From NCBI GenBank assembly GCA_963785635.1, contig CAWAWB010000015.1:1-64000 (forward strand): 64,000 bases of DNA. The letters run 5' to 3'. The notes under the pieces are model-generated. The model did not search any database, was not told the DNA's origin, and saw only the letters and a list, made by a program, of their open reading frames with translations. The stretch comes from an uncultured Phycisphaerales bacterium. GTDB lineage: Bacteria > Planctomycetota > Phycisphaerae > SM23-33 > FEN-1343. Positions within the stretch are counted from its first letter, which is position 1, and the number at the start of each line of letters is the position of its first letter. A program made the translations under genes and the position numbers. This document shows, one piece after another, positions 9,983 through 37,719 of this stretch.

Positions 9983-11569
9983 CGATTAACCGATTAACAC
10001 TACAACGCCACCTGATCCATTATGCAGCAACGTATTGACGATATTCGAATGCCAAGGCTACGCAACCGTCGCTTGCGTGTTTTCACGTGGCAGCGTCGCG
10101 CTTTCTCGTTTCGTGCCTGCGTTTGAGTAATAATCTCCGCCTCCCTGGCCAGGAAGCTTTGACGAACCTGTCCCGTCAGCCACAGGGAACGCACCAGCGC
10201 CGCGGCCGCCTGGCGAATCTGGCATACGGTCAGCTGCGGATTTTTCCCCCCGCCACTGTTCCTGAACCGTGGCCAGGAACAGGTGGCTGACGGCCGTCAG
10301 CAGCAGATGACGCTTCAAGGAGCGATACCGGCGAACCTCAAAATGGTCCAGCCCCAACTCGGACTTTTCCACCTCGAAGCATTGCTCGACCCTGTACCGC
10401 GTGAAGGCCACGTGCAACATCACCTCCAGCGGCGTGCCACCCGGCGCGTTGGAGACGAAGTATTTCACCTCCTGCGGCGCCAAAATGTTGCGGGCCACAA
10501 TCAACCAATGCGCCCGCGTCGGCAGACCATCCCGTTTCAAATACAGCCGCGCCGCCTTGACCTGCCAAACCTCCGGTCCCACCGTGCTGTCCTTGACATG
10601 GAACTTCCGCCACGCTTGTTTGCGAAAAGCTGCCCCGTAGCGCAGCATGTGGCGAACCTGGATGCAGGGCAGGGTCTTGACCTTCAGACGGGGATAATGC
10701 CTCGGCCGGCCGCGCCGCGTGGCCGCACGATGCTGTTTTTGAAGAACCTCCGGTTCGCGCAGCCAGCCGTAGAAAATCGACGGCACTTCCAGGACGTAGC
10801 GCTGGCCGCACTCGTCCAGGGCGCGATGAAAGTCCGGCACTTCGCCATAACCTTCATCCCCCGTCATCCATTCAAACCGAATCCCGTTGGCCACGGCGGC
10901 GGCACGCAGTTCCAGGGCGATCTGCCACTTGGGGCGATGCTGCATTGTGTCCGGGATGCCCGCCCCCCGGCACCGAGCACGATCATCGGACCATTCCTGC
11001 GGCAAGAACATCTCCCCCGGAAGCAGGGTGTGAAAGGCGCCCGCCACATAGCTGATATGCACCGTAACCACGCAGTTATCCACCTTGCCCGTGGCGCCGC
11101 AATATTGACGCTGCACGCCGGCGGTCTTGTCGCCCTTCTTGGGATGGGCCGTCTCATCCAACACGCCAATCGACAGGGGGTGGCTGTGTTGATCGCCCAC
11201 GATCTGCATCAACCGCTGGGCCATGCGCGCATCATCCCAGTCTGCCAGCGACAGGAACTGCTGAAGCGTCCGCGGCGGAACGTCGGCCCGGTCCGCCATC
11301 GGCTCGATGCTCTTGCGCGGCAGATCCGACAATTGACCGTTGACGTAAACCCGCAGGTTGCCACAGGGCTCGCTGCGGCTGAAACAGTCGTCAAATTGTC
11401 CCAGGTACTGTTCCAACATCGGCTTGAGCTCTCGCAATTGCTTGGCATCCATGCCGTATCTCCTTTCGGGAAAAGCGCTCCCGAAAGGAACTATCGTCTG
11501 GCCGCCTGAGCTTTCTTGAGCCCAGATGGCGTTGTAGTGCTAACGGATTAACCAGTTAACCGATAAACC
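9983..11569 (-). mobile_element. IS701-family insertion sequence with imperfect terminal inverted repeats of about 28-40 bp
   Basis: Left end cgattaaccgattaacactacaacgcc. Right end ggcgttgtagtgctaacggattaaccagttaaccgataaacc (reverse complement similar). Contains a single 464-aa DDE transposase ORF. Confidence 0.8.
10058..11452 (-). CDS. transposase, IS701/IS4-superfamily DDE type
   Basis: 464 aa. Overall architecture is typical of IS701-family transposases (TGDEGYGE, HxxR-type C-terminal region). Confidence 0.8.
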   Translation of the reverse strand: MDAKQLRELKPMLEQYLGQFDDCFSRSEPCGNLRVYVNGQLSDLPRKSIEPMADRADVPPRTLQQFLSLADWDDARMAQRLMQIVGDQHSHPLSIGVLDETAHPKKGDKTAGVQRQYCGATGKVDNCVVTVHISYVAGAFHTLLPGEMFLPQEWSDDRARCRGAGIPDTMQHRPKWQIALELRAAAVANGIRFEWMTGDEGYGEVPDFHRALDECGQRYVLEVPSIFYGWLREPEVLQKQHRAATRRGRPRHYPRLKVKTLPCIQVRHMLRYGAAFRKQAWRKFHVKDSTVGPEVWQVKAARLYLKRDGLPTRAHWLIVARNILAPQEVKYFVSNAPGGTPLEVMLHVAFTRYRVEQCFEVEKSELGLDHFEVRRYRSLKRHLLLTAVSHLFLATVQEQWRGEKSAADRMPDSPGGRGAGAFPVADGTGSSKLPGQGGGDYYSNAGTKRESATLPRENTQATVA

Positions 11570-17139: not shown

Positions 17140-17422
17140 TTCCTAATTAAAGCGTCCCTCAAAGCGAGCCGATGACCTGACGGGAAAGAGGCCGGTTTAC
17201 ATCGCCGGCCGCCTTGTCGGGCAGGAGCATCTGCAAGTCGAAGGCACGGAGAGACTCGCCGCGAAACGGCGGGCGATCTCCGGGCCTTCATTTTTTTGCG
17301 CTCTATGCGAGCTGCCCGCGTGGACGACGAGTGGACCATTAAGGGACAGCTTACATCCAGCCCTGCCTTTGCTCGTCACGGGCGATGGCAGGCGGCTCCA
17401 GAACCATAGAAAGGGACTCCTC

Positions 17423-19403
17423 ATGGCACGGCAGATGACGGTGGGCAAGAAGATCGCGGCGGGATTCAGCATCGTTCTGGTGTTGCTCGTAGTCGTAGGA
17501 ACGATAGCCTGGTTTGCCTTGCACCAGGCTTCCGGCGGTTTTAGCCGCTTTGGAGTCATGGCGCATATCTGCAACGTGATGGGCGACCTCAAGGCTCAGA
17601 TGCTGACGCTCCAGATGGACGTCAAGGACTACCTCATCAGCAACTCCGACAACCATAAGCAGGACTTCGACACGTGCATCAAGGCCATGCGCGACAACCT
17701 GGAAAACACCAGGAAAGAGGTCAGCAGCCCGGAGCAGCTGGCGCTGCTTTCGTCCGTGGATAAACAGGTGACAGAATACGAAACGGTATTCGGCAAAGTC
17801 GTCGCGCTGACCGGCGAGCGCAACAGGCTCATCTTCAACGTGCTGGGACCCGCCGGCGTGAAGATCGAAGAGCACCTGGTTGCGCTGATGACCGCGGCCA
17901 ATGCGGACAACGACGTGCAGGGCGCGTACCTGGGCGGCCAGGTGGTCCGCTTCATGCTCTCGGGCCGGATGAGCGCCTGGCGTTTCATCCAGAAGCCCGA
18001 CCAGTCGCACGTCGATGCGGTACACAAGCACTGGGCGAACCTGGAGGAGCAACTGGCCGCGCTGGATAAGCAGCAGACCAACGCCGACCGCCGCAAGCTG
18101 GTGGCCGCCGCTCAACCTCTGGCGGCGGACTACATCAAGAAATTCGATGAGCTGGTGGCCGACACGAATGAGTGCAACGCGCACGTGGACAATCTCATCC
18201 AGCACGTCGGACCGGAATTCGAGCGCGTCACGACCGACATCGATAAGGCTGTCCGGAAGGACAAGAACGCCCTGGGCGACGCCGTGGCCTCCAACAACGC
18301 CATGGCGGCCCTGGTCATCACCATCGTCGGCGGCGCGGCCGTCGCGCTGGGTGTGCTCATGGCCACGCTGATCACGCGCGGCATTGCCAGGAAGCTGCGC
18401 CAGGTGATCGAGGGATTGACCAGCGGGTCTGAGCAGACCTCCTCCGCCGCGGGCCAGGTTTCCTCGGCCAGCCAGTCGCTGGCGCAGGGCGCATCGGAGC
18501 AGGCCGCGGCCATCGAAGAGACCACCTCGAGCATCGAGGAAATGGCCTCCATGACCAAGCAGAACGCCGGCAACGCCAACGAGGCCAAGCGCATGGCCGA
18601 TGTGGCGCAGGCAGCCGTGGAGAGCGGCACGGCGGCCATGACGCGCATGTCCGGCGCGATCGAACAGATCAAGAAATCCGCCGACCAGACGGGCAAGATC
18701 ATCAAGACCATCGACGAGATCGCCTTCCAGACCAACCTGCTGGCCTTAAACGCGGCCGTGGAAGCGGCCCGCGCGGGCGAGGCGGGCAAGGGCTTCGCCG
18801 TGGTGGCCGAAGAGGTGCGCAACCTGGCGCAGCGCTCGGCCGAGGCGGCGCAACACCGCGTCGCTGATTGAAGAGTCGCTCAAGAACGCCGAGAACGGCG
18901 TACACATCACGGGCGAGGTGGCCAAGTCGCTGACCGAGATCGCCACGGGCAACAAGAAGAGCAACGAGCTCATCCGCGAGATCGCCGCGGCCTGCTCCGA
19001 GCAGGCGCAGGGCATCGAGCAGGTGAACGTGGCGGTGAGCCAGATGGACCAGGTGACGCAATCCAACGCGGCCAACGCAGAAGAATCCGCCTCGGCCTCG
19101 GAGCAGCTTTCCGCACAGGCCCTGGAGCTCAACAGCATGGTGCAGCAACTGGCGGCCATGGTGGGCGGTGCGAATGCGGCTTCGGCAACCTCCGCTGGAA
19201 CATCACCTGCGGCCAAGGTGTACGGCGGCGCAGCCGCGCAGCGTGCAGCCTCAGCCGGCGTGAAGGGATCGGGCAAGGCGGCGGCCAAATCGGCCCGCGC
19301 AGGGTTGTCGGCGGAGCATAACATCAAGCTGCCGCCGCCCTCGGGCCACTCGTCCAAGGATGAGTTCGTGCTGCAGGAATCGGAAGAGATTGCAAAGTTT
19401 TAG
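17423..19403 (+). CDS. methyl-accepting chemotaxis protein (4HB sensor, TM, HAMP, MCP signalling domain), frame interrupted near 18850-18860
   Basis: Highly conserved MCP signalling hairpin ([44 protein letters not shown]). Continues in the next frame as [30 protein letters not shown].... Confidence 0.85.
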
Positions 19404-19684: not shown

Positions 19685-22038
19685 TTATTTTCCCGCCGTC
19701 ACGCCCTCCACCTCGCGAATCACGGCGATGAGCGATTCGGAGCTGCCGGACTTGGTGAGATAGGCGCTGGCGCCGGCGCTCAGCATGGCGGCCGCGCGGT
19801 CGGCCTGGTCGTACATGGACAGGCCGATGATGTGGATATCCGGCTGCTCGGCATGGATGACTTTGGTGGCCTCCACACCGTCCATAATGGGCATGCTGGC
19901 GTCCATGAGGATGACATCCGGGTGCAACCGCCGCGCCTGGTTGACTGCCTCCTGGCCGTCGCCAGCCTCGCCCAGGATCTCGATATCCGGCTCCTCCCGA
20001 AGCAGCGTGGCCAGGCCCTGCCGCATCACGGCGTGATCATCGGCCAGCAGCACGGAGATTTTTTCGCCGGCCACACGATGCGCGGCGATCAGTTCCTGCT
20101 TCTCGCCATCGGTCAAGCCGACCGCCGCCTTCAACGACGCCTCCGCCTTGGCCGAAAGGCGGCTGGGCGCGATCAACGTCACGCGCGTGCCCTTGCCGGG
20201 GGCGCTGTCGATATCCAGGCAACCGCCCAGGAGGAAGAGCCGCTCGCGAATGGAGAACAGGCCGAACCCGCCGGTGGCGGATTCCTGGTCGCCGGCGATC
20301 TGCTGGGCATCCCTGAAGCCTTTGCCCTCGTCGCTCACGACAATCTCCACATAATCTTCATCCACGCGCGACAACTTCACGGTCGCCTTGTCCACGCCGG
20401 CGTGTTTGACCACGTTGAAGAGCAGCTCGCGTATGGATTGGAACAACAGGATCTGGAGGTCCTTGCGCTCGAGCTGAATGTCTTCGACGATCTCCAGGTG
20501 TACGCTGAGGCCGTGCTTTTCCTGCATCCAGCGCGCCAGCCATTCCAGACCGGCGATCAGGCCGGCCTCCTTCAGGATCGCCGGGGAGAGGCTCGGCCGT
20601 CAACGCGCGGCAGGTCCTGATCGATTCCTCCGCCAGTCCCATGGCGCGCTCCAACTTGCCCCGCAGCGCATCGCTGGCCTGGCGGAGAGATACCTCCAGG
20701 CCGAACTTGATGCCTACCAGGAGCTGCTGGAGATGATCGTGCAGCACCTGCGCCAGCCGCTGCCGCTCGGCCTGTTCCACCATGGTCAGTTCGGAAGCCA
20801 GGCGGGAAAGCTGCGCGCACCCGGTGCTGAAGCTCGCACGTGCGCTCCTGAACGCGATCCTCCAGCTCATTGCGTGCCTTGACCAGGGCATCCTGGGCCT
20901 GCTTGTAGGCGGTGATGTCCCGGATGGCCGTAAAGCGTGTGGAGGAATCGTATGGAAAAGGCTTTCCGTGAGTCTCCACGTAAATCGCAGAGCCGTCCTT
21001 GCACAGCATGGGATGGTCCAGGTGGCTCTCCAGACCCCGAGAGATATTGTGCATGATGCGAGCGCGATCCGGCGGCCGAACAAACCGGGCGATCGGCTGG
21101 CCAATCAGTTCCTCGCGCCGATACTTTAACATTCCGGCCAGTTGGTCATTGATATCCACGTACTTTCCGTGATGGATGATGGCAATACCTTCAAATGTGG
21201 CCTCCGCCAGGCGGCGAAAGCGTTCCTCGCTGCGCTGCACGGCCTCCTGGGCCTGCTTGAGAGCGGTGATGCATTGGGCGGTGCCCGTCATGCGCACCGG
21301 CCTGCCGGAGTCATCGTAAATAGCCCGGCCGCAGGCTAAGATCCAGTGGATGCTCCCATCATCGTGCATGGCGCGGAATTCAACCGAATAATAAGCATGG
21401 CGATGAATCGCCTCTTCAACGCTGGTGCGAACCTTAGGCACATCCTCAGGATGCACCCGGCTGAAAAACACCTCGTAGGACTTGGGCGTATCTGTCGGAA
21501 GCCCCAGCAGGCGGCTGGCCTGATCACCCCATTTCAGATCATTGCCGACCAGGTCCCAGTCCCATGTCCCCACTTCAGCGGCCTCGGTCGTCAGCCGCAG
21601 CCTTTCCTCACTACTGGCCAGCGACTCCTGCGCGGCGGTCCGTTCGGCGAGTTCCCGGGCCATCTCATCGCGGTGGATTATGGCTTGCCGGCGCGCGGAG
21701 CGAATAATGTGCCCAAAAAGCACAATAAACGTAAACAACACGAAGTACGTGACAACCGAGATCGCATCACCGACATCGACAAAAGTCCAGGTGTAGCGAG
21801 GTATGTCAAAAAAATAATCGCCCACAAAATAACCGAGGATACCGGCCAGAATGGATGGTCCCAGACTGCCGAACCAGGCTACGGCGACTACAGCCATCAG
21901 GAACATAAACAACGGCGCGCGCGGACCCAGATACGGGTCCAGCAGCAACCTCACCACAAAAGCGATTGCAACTGCCGAAATGGCCGCAAGATACCCCCCC
22001 ACCAGTGCACAAGCTTTGGATTTGCGCATTACACCCAC
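19685..22038 (-). CDS. hybrid sensor kinase (DUF4118-like membrane N-terminus, 2 x PAS, HisKA_3 H-box, HATPase_c, C-terminal receiver), two frame interruptions near 20583-20595 and 20812-20825
   Basis: Three overlapping minus-strand ORFs join into one protein: ...ELEDRVQERT | SELTMVEQAERQRLAQVLHDHLQQ | ...LIAGLEWLARWMQEKHGLSVHLE...NVVKHAG... + REC (ISVLLADDHAVMRQGL...). Confidence 0.75.
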
Positions 22039-25082: not shown

Positions 25083-25186
25083 CGCCGCCGTGACTTGGCC
25101 AACCCGGCTTTTCGCTCCCGGGGTTGCCTAAGCCCCATTGGGCCCTTCTGCTTGACAATTCCTCCAACTGCGGTTGCACTAGCCGC

Positions 25187-26330
25187 ATGAGCGACGCTCA
25201 AAGGCCCACAATCTTCCTCACCGCCGCGGAAACCAGCGGCGACATGCACGGCGCAAACCTCATCCGCGCGCTATCTGCGCGGCTGCCGGATGCGCATTTT
25301 GTCGGCGTCGGGGGTCCTGAGATGCGCGCGGCCGGATGCGAGCTTTTAGAGGATGTGGTCGCGCACGCGGCCATGGGGCTGGATGCGGCGGTGAAGTTCC
25401 CCTACTTTCGCCGCGTGATCAAGACTGTGGCCAAAGAGATGGCCGCGCGGCGGGCCAGCGTGCTTGTACCTATCGATTCGCCCGGCCTGAACTGGCACAT
25501 GGCGAAGGCGGCGAAAAAGCTGGGGGTGCCGGTGATGTATTACGTCTCGCCGCAGGTGTGGGCCTGGGCGCCGTGGCGCGTGAAAAAGATGCGCAGGCTG
25601 ACGAATCACGTGGCCTGCCTGCTGCCCTTTGAGCAGGAATACCTGCGCGCCTGCGGCGTGGCAGCCACGTTTGTGGGCCACCCGATGTTCGATCATTTGC
25701 CCGCGCGGTCTGCGCAGCCGCGGCAGAATTCCTGAGGATGGGAGTTGGCGGATTTTGCTGCTGCCCGGCAGCCGCAAAAAAGAAATTCTGCGGCACGCGG
25801 CGGCCATGGGGGGGGCGGCGGCCACGATCCGGCAAGCATTTCCCAAGGCGACTTTGCAGATGGCCGTGGCGGACAGCCGCGCGGCGGAGCTGGCGAAGGA
25901 AAAGTTGGGCGGTGATATCCCTATCATTTCGGGGAGAACTTACGAGTTGCTGGCGGGGGCGGATTTTGCCATCGCGGTCTCGGGCACGGTGACGCTGGAG
26001 GCGGCGTACCTGGGCGTGCCGATGGTTATCTGCTACCGCGCAAACCGCGTGGTCTTTGAGCTCTTCCGCCACACGCTGGCTTCCACGCGGTATTTTTCGC
26101 TGCCGAATATTCTGGCGGGGTGCGAGCTCGTGCCGGAGCTGATGCCTTGGAACGGCCGCGCGGAGGCGATTTCGGCGGCGGCTTTGCACTTGCTCGGCAA
26201 TCCGCAGGGACTGCTGGAAGTTTCCCACAAGCTGATGCAGTTGGCCGATCCTTTGAAAGAGCCGCTCTCCAAGCCAACCTGTCAGGCGGTGGCCGAGCTG
26301 GTAATCCAGACGATGCGCGCTGGAGCGTAG
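25187..26330 (+). CDS. lpxB: lipid-A-disaccharide synthase, frame interrupted near 25720-25730
   Basis: N-terminus IFLTAAETSGDMHGANLIRAL. C-terminal ILLLPGSRKKEILRH motif in the second frame. Confidence 0.8.
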
Positions 26331-26658
26331 CGGCCACCTGCACATCTTCAGATTAATGCTGAGCGGTTGGTCGGTCAGCAGGCTCAGGGCACGCTAGGGA
26401 ATTTTTTGCCACTTGGGTAAGACCCTTCAAGCACCTCGCTGAAACTCCTTTGCGCCCCGCCAGATACTGCCGCGCCAATTTTTTTGGGCGGATGAGGATT
26501 TGGCGGGTGAGACAGTAACAATTGTTATGCAGACACCCGGCAGTGGTGCACGAATGCCGGAGGTAGTTAAACAGGCATTGGGACTGCAAGGGGCCTGGCA
26601 CTTGGAAAGTAGTTCTTCCAACAAACGCAGGCTGAATGCGGCCCAAAGGAGTACATAT

Positions 26659-27741
26659 ATGAAAGCGTGCTTAAAGATACCCGTGACAGGAGCGCTGCTG
26701 GCGCTGCCGCTGGCGGTATGCGCCTTCGGCCAGAGCACCAGACCCCAAGATTCGCCCGCCAAAGATCCGCCCAGCATATCCGGCCTGCGCGCCGAGGCGG
26801 ACAGGGTGATTGCCAATGCCAAGGCCACCGATCCGACGCTTGATCCTTTTTTCACCAACTCCAGGGGTTATGTGGTTTTTCCGAAGGTCGGCAAGGGTGG
26901 ATTCATTTTTGGCGGGGCTTTCGGCAAGGGACTGCTGTATGAGAATGGCGTTCCCACGGCCTATGTCGAGATGACGCAGGGCACCGTGGGCGGACAGATC
27001 GGCGGGCAGAAGTTCAGCGAGCTGATCTTCTTTGAGACCAATGATGCGCTGCAAAAATTCAAGACGAGTGAATGGGCCATGACTGCGCAGGCCACGGCCG
27101 TGGCGCTTGAATCGGGCAGGGCCAAAAACGCGAAGTACACCGAGGGCGTGGCGGTCTTTACGCTGGCGCCCAAGGGGTTGATGGCGGAGGCGGTGGTAGG
27201 CGGACAGAAGTTCAAGATCCGGTCGATCATTGAATCTTCAGCTCCGAGCGCGGCAGCGGATGTGTGTCCGCCGGATCTTCGGGCCAGGGCTGACAACACA
27301 ATCGCCGATGCCAAGGCCATGGATTCCTGGCTGAAGCAGTATTTCAGCAGTTCCGCGGGGTATGTTGTTTTTCCCACTGTCGGCAAGGGCGGGCTGGTGG
27401 CTGGGGCCGCGTACGGCAAGGGCATTCTCTATGAGAAGGGCGTGCCCAAGGCCTGCGTGACCTTGACCCAGGGCACGGTCGGGGCCCAGGCCGGCGGGCA
27501 GGAGTACAGCGAGCTCATTTTCTTCGACAGCCAGCAGTCTGTGGACAAGTTCAAGGCCGGCAATTACACGCTGGACGCCCAGGCCAGCGCCGTGGCCATC
27601 AAGAGCGGCGCCGCGGCCAACGCCAGCTACAGGCATGGGGTGGCGATCTTTACGCTGGCGCCCAAGGGATTAATGGCGGAGGCGGCGGTAGGCGGGCAGA
27701 AATTCAACGTGCTCCCGCTTAACACCGAGGCCGCCCGCTGA
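26659..27741 (+). CDS. lipoprotein with two tandem SYLF/Ysc84-like (DUF500) domains
   Basis: Internal duplication, each copy carrying YVVFPKVGKGG...G.GKG.LYE.G.P.A...TQGTVG.Q.GGQ..SELIFF......KFK...AQA.AVA..SG...NA.Y..GVAIFTLAPKGLMAEA.VGGQKF. Signal peptide plus Cys. Confidence 0.5.
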   Translation: MKACLKIPVTGALLALPLAVCAFGQSTRPQDSPAKDPPSISGLRAEADRVIANAKATDPTLDPFFTNSRGYVVFPKVGKGGFIFGGAFGKGLLYENGVPTAYVEMTQGTVGGQIGGQKFSELIFFETNDALQKFKTSEWAMTAQATAVALESGRAKNAKYTEGVAVFTLAPKGLMAEAVVGGQKFKIRSIIESSAPSAAADVCPPDLRARADNTIADAKAMDSWLKQYFSSSAGYVVFPTVGKGGLVAGAAYGKGILYEKGVPKACVTLTQGTVGAQAGGQEYSELIFFDSQQSVDKFKAGNYTLDAQASAVAIKSGAAANASYRHGVAIFTLAPKGLMAEAAVGGQKFNVLPLNTEAAR

Positions 27742-27873
27742 CGGATAGAAACTTCGCTTTAACATTTTGGGGATGAGTTTCACAGGGCTGCCGGATGCCT
27801 TGCATTTGGGCAATCGGGGATCGGTTCCTCGCAAGCCGCACGGCCGATCGGCAGACCAATGGGGAGTTAGCTC

Positions 27874-28116
27874 ATGTGTAGGTTATGGAAAGTAATAGTG
27901 GTTTCGTTAGTAGCTCTGCAAATGGCGGCGTGCTCCTGTTGTGCCCCCAAGCATGAGGCCACGGCCTCGACATGCGGGACATGCTCGACGCCGCCCAAGA
28001 GCACGTGCCAGCAGCAGCCCAAGAGCACGTGCGCACCTTCGCCCAGCAGTACGTGCCCGCCCAGCGCTGCTTCGCCGGAAGTTGCCGCGGCGGACAATTC
28101 GGGGATGAGCCAGTAG
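27874..28116 (+). CDS. small Cys-rich lipoprotein-like peptide (80 aa) with KSTC/STC repeats; resembles the N-terminal leader of the 28290 SYLF lipoprotein
   Basis: Signal-like N-terminus followed by MAACSCC. Repeats ...STCGTCSTPPKSTCQQQPKSTCAPSPSSTC. Confidence 0.35.
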   Translation: MCRLWKVIVVSLVALQMAACSCCAPKHEATASTCGTCSTPPKSTCQQQPKSTCAPSPSSTCPPSAASPEVAAADNSGMSQ

Positions 28117-28289
28117 GCCGTCCTGGGTTTGGAAACAGGTTCACGTTCCTGGCGCGGCCGCGGGGTGGGGCCACGATCAGGTACATCTGGTCACCCCAGG
28201 TCAGAAGGGGCTCTTCGACCGGCTTGCACACGGGAGCAGTTCCGTAAGAGGCAGGACAGGTTGACAGCCCAGTGACAGGAGTGCAATGT

Positions 28290-28931
28290 ATGAGCAACGT
28301 ATTGAAGATCCTTTTAGTGGCATTGGCCGTGGTGCCGCTGGCCGCCTGCGGCTGTTGTGGCAGTTGCTGCGGGCACCATGAGACGGCCAAGTCGACGTGT
28401 GGTGCACCGCCTCCCTGTGCTGCACAGAATCCGCCTCCCTGCCCGGCTAACCCGTGCCCGGCGGAGCTGCGGGCTGATGCGGACCGGGCGATTGCCGATG
28501 CCAAGGCGGCGGATCCCTCGCTGGATTGCTATTTCCAGAATTCCGCGGGCTATGCCGTATTTCCCAAGGTCGGCAAGGGCGGCCTGGTGGTCGGCGGCGC
28601 TCATGGCAAGGGCGTGCTGTATGAGCATGGCACTCCCACGGCCTGCGCGGACATGACGCAAGCCACCGTGGGCGCACAGGCCGGCGGCCAGGAGTACAGT
28701 GAGATTATCTTCTTTGAAACGCAGGATTCCCTGAATCGTTTCAAGCAGGGTAAGTACACGACCAGCGCCCAGGCCTCGGCGGTCGCGCTGCAAAGCGGCG
28801 CGGCATCCAATGCCAGGTACGAGCACGGGGTGGCCATCTTTACGTGGTGCGCCTCGGGAATGATGGCTGAAGCATCGGTAGGCGGACAGAAGTTCACCAT
28901 CTATCCGATGCGCGAAACCGGCATGGGCTAG
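28290..28931 (+). CDS. single-domain SYLF/Ysc84-like lipoprotein with a Cys/Pro-rich N-terminal region
   Basis: Same domain signature as 26659..27741. N-terminus LAACGCCGSCCGHHETAKSTCGAPPPCAAQNPPPCPANPCP. Confidence 0.5.
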   Translation: MSNVLKILLVALAVVPLAACGCCGSCCGHHETAKSTCGAPPPCAAQNPPPCPANPCPAELRADADRAIADAKAADPSLDCYFQNSAGYAVFPKVGKGGLVVGGAHGKGVLYEHGTPTACADMTQATVGAQAGGQEYSEIIFFETQDSLNRFKQGKYTTSAQASAVALQSGAASNARYEHGVAIFTWCASGMMAEASVGGQKFTIYPMRETGMG

Positions 28932-29082
28932 GTCTGGCTGATTTGACTTCGGACCCGGCGGCAGCCTTCATGTCCGAGATGTGCAGGACATGAAGACTGC
29001 CGTCGTTGTTTTTTTGGCATAGGACTTAGGGCTCAGGGTTTTGCAGCAAGGCCGGCTTTGCGCGGGCTAGCGCAAAAGTCAA

Positions 29083-29319: not shown

Positions 29320-31078
29320 ATGGCAAACGGAGTTGGAAACGCCCGTATCGCAAGAATCAGCTTCATCATGCTGTTAACCATCCTCGTTGCGGCCGCCGCA
29401 ACATCCGCGGCCACGCCCGCCAGTTTACCTGCCACCGGCAAGACTGAATTTCCCGCCGGCGCGGCGGCGGGCGGCGAGCTGCTCTACAACGGCATCGTGC
29501 TGCCCAGCCAGTGGCCGCCCAAGCTGGATGAGCAAAAAGATGTGCAGGATAGAAAACCTCTGGCCACGCCCTACTACCTGAAGAATCCCCCGGCCGTAAT
29601 TGGGATCGATGTGGGCCGCCAGACTCTTCGTGGATGATTTCCTCATCCAGGACAGCACGCTGAAGCGCGAGTGCCACACCGCCGCGTATGTCGAAGGCAA
29701 CCCGGTATTCAGGGGCGGCATGGTCTTCAGCGACGGCGTGTTCTACGACCCGACGGACAAGCTGTACAAGATGTGGTACCACGCCGACGGCACATCGCTG
29801 ACGACCAGCAAGGACGGCATTCACTGGGGCGAAGGCAAGATGGTTTGCCCGCTGCCCATGATCAAGAAAACCGATGCCAATGGTGTTTCGACGAGGGTTA
29901 AGGGCAAGATTGACTCGACCACCGTGTGGCTGGACCTGGAGACCAAGGACAGCAGCCAGCGCTTCAAGATGGTGCGCGTGACCGCGGGTGAGCCCTATCG
30001 CGGCATGATTTACACCTCCGCCGACGGCATCAACTGGGTGGACACGGGCAAAGTGACCGGCGGCCTGGGCGACCGCAGCACGATCTTTTTCAACCCGTTC
30101 CGCAAGGTCTGGGTGTTCTCGAACCGCCATGGCTGGGGCAAGCCGCGCGCCCGCCGGTACTGGGAAGTGAGCGACATGGTCGCGGGCCCATTGTGGGAAA
30201 ACACCGACCAGGCGCCCATCTGGGTGGGCGCGGATGAGCTCGACCCGCCGCGCGAGGATTACAAGCTCAAGTGCGAACTGTATAACCTCGACTGCGCGGG
30301 CTACGAGAGCCTGATGCTGGGGTTGTTCACCATCTGGCGCGGCGATTACAGCGATATCGTCAAGAAGGCCAAAGCGGAGAAGGACCCCGAGGCCAAGGCC
30401 GCGATAGAAAAGCAGCTTGAGGGGTTGAAGCCGCGGCAGAAACCGAACGAGGTGTGCGTGGGCTTCAGCCGCGATGGATTCTTCTGGAGCCGGCCGGATC
30501 GCCGCACGTTTATCGGCGTCAATGAGGATCGTGACGCCTGGAATAATGCCAATGTCCAGTCGGCCGGCGGCTGCTGCCTGGTGGTGGGCGACAAGCTGTA
30601 TTTCTACACCAGCGCCCGCGATGCCAATGGCGGCAACGTGTGTACCGGTCTTTCCACGTTGCGGCGAGATGGGTTTGCCTCCATGGCCGCCAAAGAAGAA
30701 GGCACGCTCACCACGCGGCCGATCAAGTTCTCGGGCAAACATCTGTTTGTGAACGTGGATGATCCCAAAGGCGAGCTGACCGTGGAAGTGCTGGATGAGG
30801 CCGGCAAGGTGATCGCCCCCTTCACGGCGGCCCAGTGCAGGCCGGTGAAAGCCGACAGCACCATCGCCCAGGTGAAATGGAATGGCGCATCCAGCCTGGC
30901 CGATGTGGCGGGCAAGAATGTGCGGCTGCGCTTCCACCTGACCAACGGCCGGTTGTACGCGTTCTGGGTGAGCCCGGACGCCTCCGGCGCCAGCAACGGC
31001 TACGTGGCCGCCGGCGGCCCCGGTTTCACCAGCGATAAGGACACGGTCGGCGAGGCGAGCTATAAGGCGGCGAAGTAG
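29320..31078 (+). CDS. secreted beta-propeller glycoside-hydrolase-like protein (GH32/43/130 superfamily-like, family unresolved), frame interrupted near 29615-29630
   Basis: Signal peptide in ORF 29320. The body is in ORF 29600 (WYHADG, FSRDGFFWSRPDRRTFIG, LSTLRRDGFASM-type blades). Joined at IDVGRQ|LFVDDFLI. Confidence 0.4.
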
Positions 31079-31153
31079 TATGCGGCGCGGATCACCTCCA
31101 GGCCGCGCGACCCTCACCCTACCCTCTCCCAGGGGAGAGGGGTAAAGAAGGGC

Positions 31154-33220
31154 ATGCGCAATGGAGATATGCGGATGAGGTGTAAGAGCGGGCTGTTATT
31201 GCAGGTTGTTTTCAGCGCCGCGATTGTTGGAATCGTGCTGTTTCAGGGATGTTCATCATCCCAGGAGCACCACCGCGCAGACAGCCGCGCGGCGGAGGCG
31301 GAGCAGGCGACAAGCTTCGTGTACAAGGGCGAAATGCCTAAAGAGTTTCACGAAGCGCCCATGCTGGCAGAACTGGTCAAGGCGGGCAAGCTCCCCGCCG
31401 TCAAAGACCGGCTGCCCGCCAAGCCGCTGGTCATTCCGCCCATCGAGCAGATCGGCAAGTACGGCGGGACGTGGCGCCGCGCCTTTACCGGCCCGGCGGA
31501 TTTCCAGACCATCGATCGTATCCAGCATGATTTCCTGCTGTACTATGACCTGGACGGCAAGACCATCCTGCCGCACATTCTGAAAAGCTGGGACATCAGC
31601 GACGGCGGCAAGGTGTTCACCTTCCATCTGCGGCCGGGCATGAAGTGGTCGGATGGCGAGCCGTTTACCGCGGACGATTTCGTTTTCGCCTACGAAGATA
31701 TCGACCGCAACGACAAGATAAATTTCCGCCTGCCCTTTTACTTCCGGACCCGCGACGCGAATGAGCCGGACGGATTCTCTGAAGCGCGCCTGGAGAAGGT
31801 GGATGACTACACCATCCGTTATATCTTCAAATCGCCCTACTACGTGTTCGTGGAGATGGCCGCCTCCCAGAACATCAGCGGCCAGACGCACCGCGGCTGG
31901 AACGGCCCCATCTACGCGCCAAAGCATTACCTCAAGCAGTTCCACCCCCGCTATGCGCCCGTGGAAAAGCTCGAGGAGCAGGCCAGGGGCGAGGGTTTGA
32001 AGGACTGGGTGATGCTGTTCCAGCACAAGGCCCGCATGCAGGAAAACCCTGATCTGCCGGTGGTGGGTCCCTGGCGGACGGTGACGCCGATGACGACGCA
32101 GGCCTTCACCCTGGAGCGCAATCCCTATTACTTTGCCGTGGATCCCAACGGCAACCAGCTTCCGTACATCGACCGGATCTCCATGCAGCTCACGCAGAGC
32201 CTGGAGGTGGTGAACCTGCGCGCCATGCAGGGCCAGATCGACATGCAGCTTCGGCATATACAACTGGTCAAGTATCCCCAGCTTGTGAAGAAGGCCGCAG
32301 AGGGACAGTACCACATATATCGCTGGCCCAGCATAGGCGGCTCAGACGCGGCGGTCTATATCAACCAGAGCTGGGAGGGCGACGACGAGGTGGCCAAATG
32401 GCTGCGCTGCCGCGATTTCAGAATCGCGCTTTCACTGGCAACCAACCGCAAGGAGATCAACGAGCTGGTCTTCATGGGCCTGGGAACGCCGCGGCCGTTC
32501 ATGGCCCCCAGGGACAATCCCTATTATCCCGGCCGGGAGTACGAGCAACTCAACGCCCAGTTCGACCCGGACAAGGCCAACAGAATGCTGGATGACCTGG
32601 GCCTGACCAGCCGGGATAAGGAGGGCTATCGCCTGCGCACGGATGGACAGGGCAAGCTCATCCTGAGCCTGTCCATTATGGGCGACGCCATGATGGATTT
32701 CGCCCCGGTGGGCGAACTCCTGGAGCGGCAGTGGGCCAGGATCGGCGTCAAACTGGACCTGTCCATGGAAGAACGCACGCGCTGGATTCTGCGCCGCGAC
32801 AACAACGAACAGCAGATGTGCATATTTGACGGCGGCTGCGAGAACCCCTGGACGTACGGCGGATTCATGATCCCCGTGGCCCGAGGCTGTCCCTGGGCCC
32901 CGGCCGTGGGGCTCTGGTACGACACCGACGGACAAAAAGGCATGCCTCCCACCGATGAGATGCGCAGGCTTCAGGAACTATCTGAAAAAGGCGCTGGGCT
33001 GCCCCTGGAGCAACGGATCGAGGTCGGCAGGGAAATGTGGCGCATCCATGCACAGAACGCATTTGTGATCGGCGCCGTGGCTGAGTCGCCCGCCTTCAAC
33101 GGCCTGGCCATCGTGAAGGACAATTTTCACAACGTGCCGCGCATGGCGCCCAACAGTTCCGCCTTGCAGACCGAAGGCATTGCGCGGCCGGAACAGTTTT
33201 ACTTCGACCCCCTGCCGTAG
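31154..33220 (+). CDS. ABC transporter substrate-binding lipoprotein, family 5 (OppA/DppA-like)
   Basis: 688 aa, lipobox LFQGC, SBP_bac_5-type sequence. A paralog lies downstream. Confidence 0.8.
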   Translation: MRNGDMRMRCKSGLLLQVVFSAAIVGIVLFQGCSSSQEHHRADSRAAEAEQATSFVYKGEMPKEFHEAPMLAELVKAGKLPAVKDRLPAKPLVIPPIEQIGKYGGTWRRAFTGPADFQTIDRIQHDFLLYYDLDGKTILPHILKSWDISDGGKVFTFHLRPGMKWSDGEPFTADDFVFAYEDIDRNDKINFRLPFYFRTRDANEPDGFSEARLEKVDDYTIRYIFKSPYYVFVEMAASQNISGQTHRGWNGPIYAPKHYLKQFHPRYAPVEKLEEQARGEGLKDWVMLFQHKARMQENPDLPVVGPWRTVTPMTTQAFTLERNPYYFAVDPNGNQLPYIDRISMQLTQSLEVVNLRAMQGQIDMQLRHIQLVKYPQLVKKAAEGQYHIYRWPSIGGSDAAVYINQSWEGDDEVAKWLRCRDFRIALSLATNRKEINELVFMGLGTPRPFMAPRDNPYYPGREYEQLNAQFDPDKANRMLDDLGLTSRDKEGYRLRTDGQGKLILSLSIMGDAMMDFAPVGELLERQWARIGVKLDLSMEERTRWILRRDNNEQQMCIFDGGCENPWTYGGFMIPVARGCPWAPAVGLWYDTDGQKGMPPTDEMRRLQELSEKGAGLPLEQRIEVGREMWRIHAQNAFVIGAVAESPAFNGLAIVKDNFHNVPRMAPNSSALQTEGIARPEQFYFDPLP

Positions 33221-33262
33221 GTTTAAGTGCGCCGCGGAATGATGACCACGGAATAGCAGAAG

Positions 33263-35295
33263 ATGAAAAAGGTACTGGTGCTGCTGGGTCTGGTTGCCGC
33301 CATCGGCTTATGCTGGTGGCTGGCGACAAAGAGCGCTCGGCAGACAACCACTGGGACCGCCGCGCCAAAACTTCCCCAGGCCGGGAGCTTTGCCTATCAC
33401 GGCGAGCTGCCCCGCGAATTTCACGAAGCGCCCGTGCTTACCCAGCAGGTGCGCGCGGGCAGACTTCCCCCCGTAAAAGAGCGCCTGCCGGATGAGCCGA
33501 TGGTCGTGCCGGTGGTCGAGAAGATCGGCACGTACGGCGGCACGTGGCATCGCGCCTTCACCGGGCCGACTGACTACCAGAACATCGATCGGCTGATGCA
33601 CGATTTACTGCTGTGCTTCGATCTGGACGGCCGAACGCTGCTGCCCAATATCGCCAAGAGCTGGGAGACAAGCGAGGACGGCCGCGTGTTCACGTTTCAT
33701 CTGCGGCCGGGAATGAAATGGTCGGATGGGGAGCCGTTCACCGCCGATGATTTTGTCTTCGCCTACGAGGATATCGCCCTGAACGACGAAATCAACTCGC
33801 GCAAGCCCGACGCTCTGCGTCTGCGCTCATTGAACGGCCCATCAGAATTTGGCCGGCTGGAAAAAGTGGACGACTTCACCATCCGCTATGTCTTCCCCCA
33901 GCCCAATTACACGTTCATCGACATGGCCGCCGGACTGACAGTCGGCGGCCAGTACGCGCGCGCGTGGGAGTTCCCGCCGTTCGCGCCCGGCACTACCTCA
34001 AGCAGTTTCTCCCCAAGTACGCCGGGGCGGAAAAACTGGAGATGTTGGCCAGGCAGGAGTCGGTTTCCAACTGGGTGGTTCTCTTCCAGAAAAAAGCCCG
34101 TCCGTCTGAAAATCCCGATCTGCCCGTGGTGGGTCCGTGGCGCGTGGCGGCGCCCATGACCGACCAGGTCTGCAAACTGGAGCGAAACCCCTATTACTGG
34201 GCGGTCGACCCCAACGGAAACCAGCTCCCGTACATCGACAACATTTCTCTTCAGCTCACGCAGGAACTGGAGGTGCTGAATCTGCGGGCGATGAGCGGCC
34301 TGATCGACATGCAGCACCGCCACATCCAGTTGGCCAAGTATCCCCTGTTCATGGCCAACGCCAAAAAGAACGGTTACCACGTGTATTGCTGGCCCGGCCT
34401 GTGCGGATCAGAGGCGGCGGTGCTGTTTAACCAGACCTGGCAGGGCGATGCGGAAATAGAAAAGTGGCTGCAAAGCAGGGAATTCCGCGTCGCGCTGTCC
34501 CTGGCGACCGACCGGCGGCAGATCAACGAGCACATTTTCTACGGCCTGGGCGAACCCCGACCGTTCATGGCCCTGGCGGGCAATGTTTATTACCCCGGCA
34601 AGGAATACGAGTTCAAGAACGCCGGATTTGACCTCGCCCAAGCCAACGCGATGCTGGACAGGCTGGGCCTGAACCGGCGGGATGATGCGGGCTACCGGCT
34701 GCGCAGCGATGGCGAAGGCCGGCTCGAGTTGACTATTTCGCTGCCCACGGGCCAATTGCTGGATTACGTGGCTATCGCCGACCTGCTCGTCCAGCAGTGG
34801 GCCAAGGCAGGCATCAAGCTGGACATGGCCGTGGAAGACCGCACCCTCTGGTCCATGCGGCGAGCCACGAACCAGCAGCAGCTTTCTATCTGGGAAGGCA
34901 CAGGCGCGGAGGATCCCTGGTCGGGCGGGGGCACGATCGTGGCCATCGGCGGCAGTTCCGGCATCGCCTCGGCCGTCGGTTTGTGGTGGATGACCGACGG
35001 CGAAAAAGGCCAGCCGCCCACAGGCGATATTCGCAGGCTCCTGGAGCTGTATGAGCGCGGCCGCGCGTTGCCGCTGGATCAGCGCATCGAAATCGGCCGG
35101 GAAATGTGGCGGATTCACGCGGAGAATCAGTTCGTGCTGGGCCTGGTGGGCAACTCCCCCGCCTTTAACGGCGTGGTCATCGTGAAGAATAACTTTCACA
35201 ATGTGCCGGAGCTTGCGCCGAATTCCACGTTCCTGCAAAACCCCGGCATCGCGCGGCCGGAACAGTTTTACATGGATGCTCCGGCCGCCCGGTAA
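33263..35295 (+). CDS. second family-5 substrate-binding protein (paralog), frame interrupted near 33975-33990 (1-bp loss in a C run)
   Basis: About 45% identical to 31154..33220 along its whole length. Joined at ...WEFPPFAP|RHYLKQFLPKYAGAEKLE. Confidence 0.8.
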
Positions 35296-35567: not shown

Positions 35568-36566
35568 ATGCTGGTCTTCATTCTTCGCCGCTTGATGATG
35601 GCCGTCACGACACTCGCGGGCATCTCCGTGCTCTCGTTTGTCATCATCCAGCTTCCCCCGGGGGATTTTTTGACCACGGAACTGGCCACGCTCCAGGCCC
35701 AGGGCGACCAGACCAGCCTCCAGCAGATGGCGTCGCTGCGGGCCAGCTACGGCCTGGACCGGCCCATGCACGTGCAGTACCTGATGTGGATGAAGAACAT
35801 CCTGCACGGCGATTTCGGCCTGTCCTTCGAGTACAAGCGGCCCGTGTGGGAACTCATTCGCGAGAAACTCTTTCTGACCGGTGTGGTGGCGCTGTCGACG
35901 CTGCTGCTCACCTGGATCGTCTCCATTCCCATCGGCATCTATTCCGCCGTGTACCAGAGGTCCCTCGGCGACTATGTCTTCACCTTCCTGGGCTTCATCG
36001 GCATCGCGGTGCCGAATTTTCTGCTGGCGCTGGTGCTGATGTACTTCTCGTATTCCTGGCTGCACCTGTCGATCGGAGGGTTGTTCTCCGCACAATATCA
36101 GGATGCCGCCTGGAGTTTCCCCCGCGTGCTGGACATGCTCAAGCACCTGTGGATTCCCTCCTTCGTGCTGGGCGCGGCGGGCATGGCGGGCTTCATCCGC
36201 ATCCTGCGGGCCAATCTCATCGATGAGCTGCGCAAACCCTACGTCGTCACCGCCCGCGCCAAGGGCCTGCCCAAGTGGAAGGTCATTTTGAAATACCCCG
36301 TGCGCGTGGCGCTGAATCCCTTCCTCTCCACGATGGGCTTCATCCTGCCGCACCTGGTCTCCGGCAGCGTGATCGTGGCGGTGGTGCTGGATTTGCCGAT
36401 CATCGGCAAGGACCTGCTGAAGGCCTTAAAGTCGCAGGATATGTACCTGGCCGGCACGATCATTCTCATGCTGGGCCTGCTCACGGTGATGGGCACGCTT
36501 ATCTCGGACATCTGCCTGGTCGTCCTGGACCCGCGCATCCGCATGGAAAAGGGCGCGGACAAATGA
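35568..36566 (+). CDS. ABC transporter permease (OppB/DppB-like, BPD_transp_1)
   Basis: 332 aa, 6 TM helices, EAA-loop region. Start overlaps the stop of the following gene (ATGA). Confidence 0.85.
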   Translation: MLVFILRRLMMAVTTLAGISVLSFVIIQLPPGDFLTTELATLQAQGDQTSLQQMASLRASYGLDRPMHVQYLMWMKNILHGDFGLSFEYKRPVWELIREKLFLTGVVALSTLLLTWIVSIPIGIYSAVYQRSLGDYVFTFLGFIGIAVPNFLLALVLMYFSYSWLHLSIGGLFSAQYQDAAWSFPRVLDMLKHLWIPSFVLGAAGMAGFIRILRANLIDELRKPYVVTARAKGLPKWKVILKYPVRVALNPFLSTMGFILPHLVSGSVIVAVVLDLPIIGKDLLKALKSQDMYLAGTIILMLGLLTVMGTLISDICLVVLDPRIRMEKGADK

Positions 36567-37719
36567 CCGAGCAGATTACGTCCATGCCCGAAGCCGCGCC
36601 GCCGCACGAGGCCGCCCGCGCACCCGGCGACAAGGCGGAAAAACTCTACCGCGCCAGCCAGTGGCAATTGATGTGGCGCCGCCTCAAGAAGCACCGCCTG
36701 GCGATGGTCGCGATGGTGATCGTGGGATTTCTGTACGTGGTGGCGATCTTCGGCGAGGTCTTTGCCACGGGCCGACCGGAAAATACCAGCGAGCTGGCGC
36801 ACCTGCCGCCGCAGCAATTGCACTTTTTCGACCGGGGCCGGCTCTTCCCGCACGTTCAGGGCCTCTTGGCCCAGCGCGACCCCGAGACGCGGGAGTGGAT
36901 TTACGTTAACGACCCCGAGGTAAAAATTCCCGTCCACATCTTCGGCAAAGGTTTTGCCTACAAGCTTCTGGGCTTCATCCCGTGCAGCCGCCACATCCTG
37001 TGCGTTGAGCCGGGCCAAACGCGACAGGACATTTATCTTTTAGGCACGGACGACATCGGCCGCGACATGTGGAGCCGCCTGGTCTTCGCCACGCGCATCT
37101 CCATGTCCATCGGCCTGGTGGGCGTATCACTCAGCTTGATCCTGGGCATCACCATCGGCGGCATCTCGGGCCTGTACGGCGGCTGGGTGGATAGTCTCAT
37201 TCAGCGTGTGATCGAGCTTATCCGCTCCATCCCCACCATTCCCCTGTGGATGGGCCTGGCCGCGGCGGTTCCCAAGGGCTGGTCGGTTTTGCAGGTGTAC
37301 TTCACGATCACGATTATCATCTCGCTTTTGGGCTGGACGCAGCTGGCCCGCGTGGTCCGCGGCAAGTTCCTCTCGCTGCGCGAGGAGGATTTCGTCACCG
37401 CCGCGCGGCTGATGGGCTCCGGGCCCATGCGGATCATCTTCCGCCACCTGGTGCCCAACTTCATCAGCCACATCATCGCCGCCACCACGCTGGCGATTCC
37501 GGGCATGATCTTAAGCGAGACGGCGCTGAGCTTCCTGGGCCTGGGGCTTCGCCCGCCGGCCATCAGTTGGGGCGTGCTGCTCCAGCGGCGCAGAACATCC
37601 AGACCATCGCCCAGTACCCCTGGCTGCTGATCCCGGCCATCGCGGTCATCGCGGCGGTGCTGGCGTTCAACTTTTTAGGGGATGGCCTGCGGGATGCGGC
37701 CGACCCATATTCACGGTGA
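36563..37719 (+). CDS. ABC transporter permease (OppC/DppC-like), frame interrupted near 37575-37590
   Basis: N-terminal OppC-type extension plus BPD_transp_1. Joined at WGVLLQ|[18 protein letters not shown]...[15 protein letters not shown]. Confidence 0.8.

Follow-up and report, generated by a model that had tools for sequence, protein, structure and literature searches.

The question raised by the locus described here is what a cysteine-rich leader does on an exported SYLF protein, and why a short peptide resembling only that leader is encoded directly beside it. The locus lies in a 64,000-nucleotide stretch (hereafter the window) of contig CAWAWB010000015.1 from an uncultured Phycisphaerales bacterium, and consists of three adjacent open reading frames (ORFs) on the plus strand, located between a split lpxB gene upstream and a strong terminator downstream. 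The first, g1 (26659-27741), encodes an exported protein of 360 residues with two tandem SYLF domains; the second, g2 (27874-28116), encodes 80 residues with a lipoprotein-type signal peptide, a Cys-rich tail and no domain; the third, g3 (28290-28931), encodes a single-domain SYLF lipoprotein of 213 residues. The three adjacent, same-strand ORFs are found where the initial annotation, made from the DNA letters, had placed them. In its architecture the locus departs from a known family in a lineage-specific way, through the fusion of two domains, a tether rich in Cys and Pro, and a duplicate limited to the leader. As an explanation of the whole, we tentatively propose a lineage-specific tandem expansion of exported SYLF envelope proteins of the BPSL1445/BefA type in a Phycisphaerae-like planctomycete, a reading that is about as likely to be correct as not and is held with some reserve.

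The proteins encoded by g1 (two domains) and g3 (one domain) are ordinary SYLF members of a large, named family. The Pfam model PF04366 (Ysc84, DUF500; gathering cut-off 25.1) matches g1 in two stretches with 46.5 bits (E = 3.8e-12) and g3 with 30.3 bits (E = 3.8e-7). The top NCBIfam model for both is lipo_BPSL1445 (NF049970), at 139.5 bits for g1 and 70.8 bits for g3; these scores are below its equivalog cut-off of 200 bits, and the two proteins are thus related to its members but not equivalogs of them. Sequence comparison with the PDB gave only two significant matches, 7OFN (E = 9.2e-14 for g1 and 1.5e-12 for g3) and 7RFQ (E = 6.3e-10 for g1, and significant for g3 as well). An AlphaFold2 (AF2) model of g3, with a mean predicted local distance difference test score (pLDDT) of 69.8 and a mostly confident SYLF domain, was matched by Foldseek, run against the PDB, to 7OFN first (E = 5.6e-6, prob 1.00), to 7RFQ second (E = 1.7e-5, prob 1.00) and to Brucella EipA third. 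The SYLF/Ysc84 assignment of the initial annotation is therefore confirmed by Pfam scores above the gathering cut-off, by NCBIfam, by PDB sequence matches and by fold. Both checks suggested there, the profile hidden Markov model search (PF04366, g1 and g3) and the structure prediction (on g3, with 7OFN and 7RFQ on top), returned the SYLF family.

The SYLF domains of g1 are located at about 26785-27237 and 27265-27723 on the plus strand (tblastn), and that of g3 at 28455-28928 on the same strand (Pfam, PDB match, alignment, tblastn and AF2/Foldseek). In the DNA they appear as three copies (26772-27071, 27264-27563 and 28454-28753) with 66-72% identity, and at the protein level both g1 domains are 62-66% identical to the g3 domain by tblastn; the earlier description of two tandem domains in g1 and one in g3 is thereby supported by Pfam, tblastn and the DNA repeats. 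In an alignment of the three window domains with 13 homologues, the Gly-rich columns (GYAVFP.VGKGG, GG.GKG, GGQ..SE and G.M.EA..GGQ.F) are invariant, as is the signature GKGG...GG.GKG...GGQ. The homologue search with g3 returned more than 4,200 proteins at E <= 1e-3, and a profile-based genome scan identified 80 SYLF loci, the top one 58% identical, spanning Pseudomonadota, Myxococcota, Bacteroidota, Planctomycetota, Verrucomicrobiota, Gemmatimonadota and others. As a fold, SYLF binds lipids and is active on membranes, and by analogy with the family g1 and g3 may be expected to bind lipids.

What sets g3 apart is the segment between its lipid anchor and its domain. The signal peptide, MSNVLKILLVALAVVPLAA-C, ends in the canonical lipobox LAAC (pattern used: [LVI][ASTVI][GAS]C) and is followed by a tether of about 37 residues, CGCCGSCCGHHETAKSTCGAPPPCAAQNPPPCPANPC, extending from the lipobox Cys to the domain (residues 20-56; 28347-28457, plus strand). 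The tether contains 9 Cys and 9 Pro, with the leader Cys at positions 20, 22, 23, 26, 27, 37, 43, 51 and 56; the leader reads CGCCGSCCGHHETAKSTCGAPPPCAAQNPPPCPANPCP, just as quoted in the initial annotation. The pLDDT is below 50 at residues 19-44 of the AF2 model, and the tether is predicted to be disordered. The earlier description of g3 as a single-domain SYLF protein with a lipoprotein signal peptide and a Cys/Pro-rich leader is thus accurate. Relative to 13 homologues in the alignment, the tether is an insertion of about 30 residues. It takes the place of the short C-S-T-A-P-K-[ST]...ER tether of the relatives, in which C-x-T-A-P-K-[ST] directly follows the lipobox Cys (27/118 homologues), and leftovers of the relatives' motif can be recognised as ...AKSTCGAPP in g3 and as PPKSTC/QPKSTC in g2.

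Among the SYLF proteins compared, the Cys-rich leader was found in g3 only. Among 118 close homologues and 85 fetched loci no Cys-rich SYLF leader has been detected, and within the first 45 mature residues g3 carries 8 Cys vs 0-2 in the 69 other lipoprotein-like ORFs of a set of 70. As for Cys-rich tethers as a genome-wide feature, the window encodes just one further clear lipoprotein, starting at 722 on the minus strand, and it is without one. In the protein collection g3 (P0001) is a singleton, g1 and g3 come from one 88-kb contig, and scans of genome and metagenome collections with g3-specific peptides found no relative.

The short tether motif, in the form C-S/E-T-A-P-K-S/T directly after the acylated Cys, is present in 27/118 SYLF homologues and a looser form in 46/118, its carriers being found among P0003-P0120 of the protein collection and in the loci L004, L014, L015, L021, L028, L030, L054, L060, L076 and L079. 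The carriers with named organisms are mostly planctomycetal. The PKSTC repeats and the AKSTCGAPP of the window look derived from this motif, which, conserved as it is in lipoprotein tethers, might act as a signal for sorting or modification.

The 80-residue product of g2 begins with a signal peptide of the lipoprotein type, MCRLWKVIVVSLVALQMAA-C, with the lipobox MAAC, in which Met at -3 is outside the strict pattern but accepted by broader lipobox patterns. Its tail of 61 residues is rich in Ser, Ala, Pro, Cys and Thr, with Cys at positions 20, 22, 23, 34, 37, 45, 53 and 61. A tandem repeat (27992-28057, plus strand; repeat family D6) of 24 bp, or 8 codons, in 2.8 copies (Tandem Repeats Finder score 72, 77% matches) encodes PPKSTCQQ / QPKSTCAP / SPSSTCPP, that is, one Cys per 8 residues. 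The repeat had been noted before as three KSTC units; it is real and actually consists of two KSTC plus SSTC and ASTC.

The similarity of g2 to the leader of g3 exceeds what composition would give. The two are matched by BLASTP with E = 7e-4; their mature parts reach a local score of 75, against 44.6 +/- 7.6 in composition-preserving shuffles (p = 6e-4); and for the signal peptides, the score of g2 is 42 with g3 and at most 37 with 54 other SYLF lipoproteins. The earlier statement that g2 resembles only the g3 leader thus holds beyond chance by all three measures. Identity to g3 is about 36%, the best-conserved portion being C-x-CC...H-E-x3-STCG. As judged from this similarity, g2 is a paralogue of the 5' end of g3 that comprises the leader alone. 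It is not a frameshifted SYLF gene, because the starts of g2 and g3 are only 416 nt apart and the spacers flanking g2 contain neither a SYLF relic nor a coding signal. It is probably the start of a real gene and is putatively expressed, since its Shine-Dalgarno spacing, n-region, h-region, lipobox and 80-codon frame are intact at this level of identity, and since a six-frame search of about 0.8 Mb for short ORFs that combine a lipoprotein start with a tail rich in Cys and poor in Arg yielded g2 alone.

The third unusual element is the fused protein encoded by g1. Cys-rich leaders had been proposed for both SYLF proteins, which is correct for g3 and incorrect for g1, where the only Cys are C4 and C21, both within the signal peptide, and C203, located between the two domains in the linker. 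Both had also been called lipoproteins; signal peptide and lipobox bear this out for g3, whereas the status of g1 is uncertain because its putative lipobox, L-A-V-C, has a non-canonical Val at -1, and an AFG/Q signal peptidase I site, read from the sequence, is equally plausible. The single Cys of the interdomain linker (...SSAPSAAADVC-PPDLRARAD) aligns with the final leader Cys of g3 (C-PAELRADAD), and domain 2 contains no signal-peptide remnant and is joined in frame via a 9-residue linker. Because C-PPDLRARAD matches C-PAELRADAD, the fusion appears to have captured a g3-like copy from the last tether Cys onward; g1 would accordingly have originated when such a copy was fused behind another one, with loss of its signal peptide and retention of that Cys.

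The homologue search with g3 revealed no closely related double-SYLF protein, as the score drops from 419 bits for g1 to 203 bits for the next protein; no ORF with two SYLF domains is present in the 80 genome loci, and g1 (P0002) is likewise a singleton in the protein collection. In 4/80 loci, all gammaproteobacterial, two SYLF genes with individual signal peptides stand in tandem but are not fused: L006 (1787-2879), L031 (3869-5034), L034 (1819-2919) and L045 (4242-5450). These loci belong to metagenome-assembled genomes (MAGs) of Lysobacterales, Chromatiales and others, and the proteins show AFEPD-type signal peptidase I sites. Their presence there indicates that tandem duplication of SYLF genes arose independently elsewhere.

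From these elements the following course of events can be proposed. A short ancestral tether of the C-S-T-A-P-K-[ST] type would have grown into the predicted-disordered segment of g3. A partial duplication of the g3 5' end, including ribosome-binding site, signal peptide, lipobox and tether, would then have given g2, whose tether was presumably lengthened further by slippage of the 24-bp repeats, each with one Cys codon. The SYLF proteins would be located at the periplasmic face of the membrane, g3 held by its acylated N-terminal Cys and g1 either anchored or soluble, where they may bind or perturb membrane lipids in envelope maintenance, as expected from the family. After the acylated Cys there are 8 Cys in the g3 tether, 11 in g3 overall and 7 in g2. 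Disulfides between the tether Cys, both within and between molecules, could yield a stalk that is stiff and can be cross-linked, for which the small Cys-rich lipoprotein g2 would be a partner. Judged by composition and location, periplasmic disulfide cross-linking is the leading guess for the role of the tether Cys; it is favoured because these are extracytoplasmic, Pro-spaced and, once the acylated Cys is left out, odd in number. Such a stalk would functionally resemble the Cys-rich envelope proteins of other bacteria of the Planctomycetota-Verrucomicrobiota-Chlamydiota (PVC) group, without homology to them.

Several observations weigh against this explanation. The tether is known from one MAG only, and no orthologues of it or of g2 have been found in the collections searched. 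With phmmer at E <= 1e-3, g2 has no match among 1.84 billion representative proteins, and a word-indexed search of 5.8 billion proteins gave no match either; as g2 itself is absent from that collection, it has received no gene call in the deposited record. It also has no Pfam match at E <= 1, no NCBIfam match and a best PDB match of E = 4, and no g2-like ORF is present in the 80 loci of the genome scan. The initial annotation had named conservation of the 80-residue ORF as decisive for its reality, and on this point the outcome is unfavourable, g2 being without a homologue beyond this locus. The codon usage of g2 is atypical, below 97% of in-frame windows. Neither lpxB nor any other neighbour from the window stands beside a SYLF gene in the 85 loci, and no Dsb gene, metal-transport or homeostasis gene, regulator or other linked gene adjoins the locus. 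Several genes of the assembly are split, which points to imperfect sequence quality. Finally, the vicinal CC pairs and the adjoining GHH have the look of metal ligands rather than of residues paired in disulfides.

A number of these points would equally be expected under neutral low-complexity drift combined with a gene relic, the alternative that survives best and one that we consider rather unlikely. By that account the tether is a functionless linker inflated by slippage, g2 is a leftover or unexpressed, and only the SYLF domains matter. The lack of g2 homologues and of a gene call, the absence of the tether from all 118 close homologues and the 85 loci, its predicted disorder and the 24-bp slippage repeat of g2 are all in line with it. 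So is the atypical codon usage of g2 (-0.20 per codon; in-frame mean 0.36), but the certainly coding leader of g3 is equally poor (-0.16), and for this reason the codon test says nothing on the coding of g2. In the GC-rich window 13 further Cys-dense 30-residue stretches occur in off-frame ORFs; the mature part of g2, unlike these, contains no Arg or Trp. An intact Shine-Dalgarno spacing, signal peptide, lipobox and 80-codon frame at about 36% identity are hard to obtain under long neutral decay. Moreover, the residue order shared by g2 and the g3 tether goes beyond composition (p = 6e-4), and the last tether Cys has been kept in domain 2 of g1, where identity to the g3 domain is 66%.

A membrane-proximal site for metal (Cu, Zn, Cd or Ni) binding or redox sensing, similar to metallothioneins, with g2 as a stand-alone metal-buffering lipopeptide, is a less probable alternative and, on balance, an unlikely one. 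The Cys clusters next to the lipid anchor read C-x-C-C-x-x-C-C-x-H-H in g3 and C-x-C-C-x3-H in g2. The spacings CxC, CC and CxxC with adjacent His are classic thiolate and imidazole ligand patterns of metallothioneins and metallochaperones; vicinal Cys pairs are poor disulfide partners; and the best conservation between g2 and g3 falls exactly on C-x-CC...H-E-x3-STCG. Pfam, however, gave no match to a metallothionein or metallochaperone family at E <= 1, and no metal-resistance, transport or regulator gene is present in the neighbourhood. In the periplasm, the Cys clusters of exported proteins are as a rule oxidised, and Cu(I) sites there are mostly built from Met and His. The distal halves of both tethers, with single Cys separated by 5-8 Pro/Ser/Thr-rich residues, have a non-chelating geometry.

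A more far-reaching possibility is that the g3 cluster (C-x-CC-x-x-CC-x-HH) and g2 together represent an undescribed envelope module of an early-branching planctomycete, in which g2 is disulfide-linked to the SYLF tether or shares a metal/redox site with it. The initial annotation had regarded a Cys-rich SYLF leader and a free-standing leader peptide as undescribed, and indeed neither has a counterpart in the homologues, loci and ORFs searched; such a module is distinctly unlikely all the same. If it were real, it would link the binding of membrane lipids to a layer of protein that is cross-linked or senses redox state, and would be an independently evolved functional analogue of chlamydial OmcA/OmcB.

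Two further explanations are highly improbable. The mature g2 has five S-T-C motifs, with Ser, Thr and Cys making up 43%, as in a precursor of a ribosomally synthesized and post-translationally modified peptide (RiPP) with a Ser/Thr-Cys core forming lanthionine-type rings, but no LanB, LanC, LanM, radical-SAM or YcaO-type enzyme is present among the ORFs scanned at about 17-38.5 kb, g2 begins with a Sec/lipoprotein signal peptide that has its homologue in g3, and not with a RiPP leader, and in g3 sequence of this kind is joined to a SYLF domain; this origin is disfavoured. An assembly artefact, in which indel or chimera errors of the MAG produced a double-domain g1 and a truncated g2, is suggested by the split genes of the window (lpxB, SBP_bac_5, the chemotaxis protein and possibly a hybrid kinase) and has hardly any credibility, since a simple indel cannot yield the in-frame 9-residue linker of g1 with no signal-peptide remnant in domain 2, the 416 nt between the g2 and g3 starts are too short for a SYLF gene and hold no domain relic or coding signal, and copies just 66-72% identical in DNA are not collapsed or duplicated reads.

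The arrangement of expression signals is operon-like. Shine-Dalgarno-like sequences, all on the plus strand and read from the sequence, were identified before each ORF: AAGGAG (26646-26651) 7 nt 5' of the g1 ATG, GGGGAG (27861-27866) 7 nt 5' of the g2 ATG and CAGGAG (28276-28281) 8 nt 5' of the g3 ATG, with a GGAG motif at 7-8 nt common to the three. Downstream of g3 lies an intrinsic terminator (28952-29017, plus strand), a GC-rich hairpin with arms at 28956-28975 and 28986-29005 followed by a T-run. RNA folding gave -35.4 kcal/mol and z = -4.77, and 0/200 shuffles were equally stable. The hairpin, which corresponds to the inverted repeat I2, has a loop of 10 nt; with this loop it was overlooked by the terminator scan and picked up by folding. 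No terminator-like structure was found by folding in the spacers g1-g2 (z = -1.07) and g2-g3 (z = -0.30). As a single strong terminator follows g3 and none lies in the spacers, the three ORFs are probably co-transcribed in a unit ending at 28952-29017, to which the common strand and the uniform GGAG spacing add support. A sigma-70 scan gave no promoter, and an Rfam scan gave no riboswitch or other RNA family within or around it.

The spacer of 328 nt that precedes g1 contains a perfect 12-bp palindrome, TAACAATTGTTA, which had been reported at 26513-26524; it does exist, 3 bp away at 26516-26527 and 131 bp 5' of the g1 ATG, and its occurrence is at chance level. The window contains 29 perfect 12-bp palindromes vs 21.6 +/- 5.0 in shuffles, and 2 AT-rich ones vs 1.5 +/- 1.2, and no site related to TAACAATTGTTA was found elsewhere in the window. 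A role of the palindrome as an operator has been rejected on the grounds of this count and the lack of a related site.

The three-gene module does not recur. Its co-occurrence elsewhere had been suggested as a check; none was found, the closest homologues (64% identity) being single genes in unrelated contexts, and the nearest approach is the two separate tandem SYLF genes in 4/80 loci. That the SYLF genes might be functionally linked to lpxB, on the model of EipA and lipopolysaccharide (LPS), was considered and rejected, as the adjacency is not conserved in the 85 loci. The ORFs annotated by Pfam and NCBIfam at about 17-38.5 kb encode a TolC-like OEP, a B12-binding protein, LpxB, a protein with only a faint beta-propeller match and a peptide ABC transporter. 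As to the source, the pyruvate dehydrogenase E2 component encoded in the window has named matches almost all in Phycisphaerae/Planctomycetota (best non-self match 64% identical), and the closest g3 homologues with names are from Phycisphaerales and Tepidisphaeraceae. The lineage is deep and sparsely sampled, which limits every conservation test made here.

Several other features of the window can be recorded. The lpxB gene is divided into overlapping plus-strand ORFs in different frames (25124-25735 and 25629-26330), which cover positions 1-171 and 188-344 of the Pfam LpxB model; the shift, near 25700-25735, has no obvious homopolymer and represents an assembly indel or a pseudogene. Also split are a gene for a SBP_bac_5 solute-binding protein (33263-34159 and 33964-35295, plus strand) and one for a methyl-accepting chemotaxis protein (17369-18871 and 18918-19400, plus strand), and on the minus strand a PAS sensor (20572-22038) is possibly parted from a HATPase and receiver half (19685-20527) of a possible hybrid kinase. 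Such splitting suggests assembly indel errors or widespread pseudogenisation. Directly downstream of the locus, a 492-residue ORF (29600-31078, plus strand) has only a faint BT_1020-like beta-propeller match (E = 0.069) and no Pfam match above threshold, and is overlapped by an antisense ORF of 583 residues (29366-31117). Next comes a peptide/oligopeptide ABC importer, its SBP_bac_5 genes lying at 31154-35295 and its permease genes at 35568-37630. Upstream in the window are an IS701-family transposase gene (10058-11452, minus strand; 314 bits, above cut-off) and a gene for a flotillin-like protein (4783-6168, plus strand; FloT model, below cut-off). Two matches to the Acido-Lenti-1 small RNA, at 7420-7465 (minus strand, 51.6 bits) and 7568-7614 (plus strand, 42.9 bits), lie about 100 nt apart and above the gathering score, here in a Phycisphaerae-like genome and so outside the phyla that name the motif.

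Little rests on the locus as it stands, with SYLF domains of the ordinary kind and unusual parts confined to one uncultured genome. To our knowledge, bacterial SYLF proteins still have no assigned physiological role; if the tether is functional, the gain would be modest: a SYLF protein on a stalk that can be cross-linked or binds metal, accompanied by a stand-alone copy of the stalk, would help to establish at which place in the envelope these proteins work and in what way, and would provide a second, independent case of small Cys-rich lipoproteins in the PVC group. In any event the locus illustrates, neatly and on a small scale, how gene architecture evolves, here by the fusion of domains, the partial duplication of a 5' end and the lengthening of a lipoprotein tether through repeats.

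Comparison with known systems can start from the Cys-rich segments. The chlamydial OmcA is a 9-kDa Cys-rich lipoprotein of the outer membrane, part of a disulfide-cross-linked envelope complex in the PVC superphylum (PMC2811131). Its likeness is an analogy to g2 only, for which cross-linking is conjectural; unlike OmcA, g2 is an orphan, there is no sequence relation (Pfam at E <= 1, phmmer), and no OmcB or MOMP partners were seen. The planctomycetal YTV proteins are, like the g2 and g3 products, Cys-/Pro-rich exported envelope proteins from the same phylum, but neither g2 nor g3 has a YTV domain or any Pfam match besides Ysc84 at E <= 1. YTV Cys-rich wall proteins occur in Planctomycetales and are reported absent from early-diverging planctomycetes (PMC8567305). 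As Phycisphaerae is one of these lineages, the PVC analogy is loose, a further point to be set against the proposed role. Metallothioneins and the Cys-rich tails of metallochaperones share with g3 the CxC, CC and CxxC patterns and nearby His, all within the first 11 mature residues, and differ in that the g2 and g3 segments have no Pfam or NCBIfam match to them at E <= 1, are extracytoplasmic, continue into a Pro-spaced tail and have no metal-related genes nearby; the likeness of g2 and the leader to metallothioneins would thus be one of composition only.

The remaining comparisons concern the SYLF domain. Brucella EipA (DUF1134, 5UC0) is described in PMC10787603 as a periplasmic, beta-barrel-like envelope-integrity protein of SYLF-like structure. 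Its Pfam family matches g1 weakly (E = 0.0042, below threshold); EipA belongs to another family and is genetically linked to the LPS O-antigen, and the lpxB adjacency seen here is not conserved. The eukaryotic proteins SH3YL1 and Ysc84/Lsb3/Lsb4 contain the same PF04366 domain, which binds phosphoinositides and lipids there; it was defined as a phosphoinositide-binding module, and bacterial members carry export signals (PMC3105542). The eukaryotic forms differ in being cytosolic, in their SH3 or FYVE fusions and their N-terminal amphipathic helix, and in the absence of a signal peptide or acyl anchor.

Closer still are two exported bacterial proteins. The view in the initial annotation that bacterial SYLF proteins are little studied is only in part justified, as two structures have been solved and membrane permeabilisation has been demonstrated for BefA. 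The SYLF domain of BefA binds lipids, and the protein permeabilises liposomes and bacterial membranes (bioRxiv 10.1101/2022.03.24.485696). This beta-cell expansion factor A of Aeromonas veronii (7RFQ) is the second-best match in sequence and fold; in contrast to g3, it carries an additional domain at the N-terminus, lacks both a lipobox and a Cys-rich segment, and acts on host cells. BPSL1445 of Burkholderia pseudomallei (7OFN) is a SYLF lipoprotein that binds lipids and phosphoinositides, and its solution structure defined the fold, similar to EipA (Quilici 2022, as cited in PMC10787603). Unlike BPSL1445, g1 and g3 score below the equivalog level, with about 22% identity to 7OFN, and possess a Cys/Pro-rich tether of about 37 residues (g3) or a two-domain fusion with a non-canonical lipobox (g1). 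They share with it the SYLF fold, the Gly-rich motifs, an N-terminal export signal and, in g3, the lipobox.

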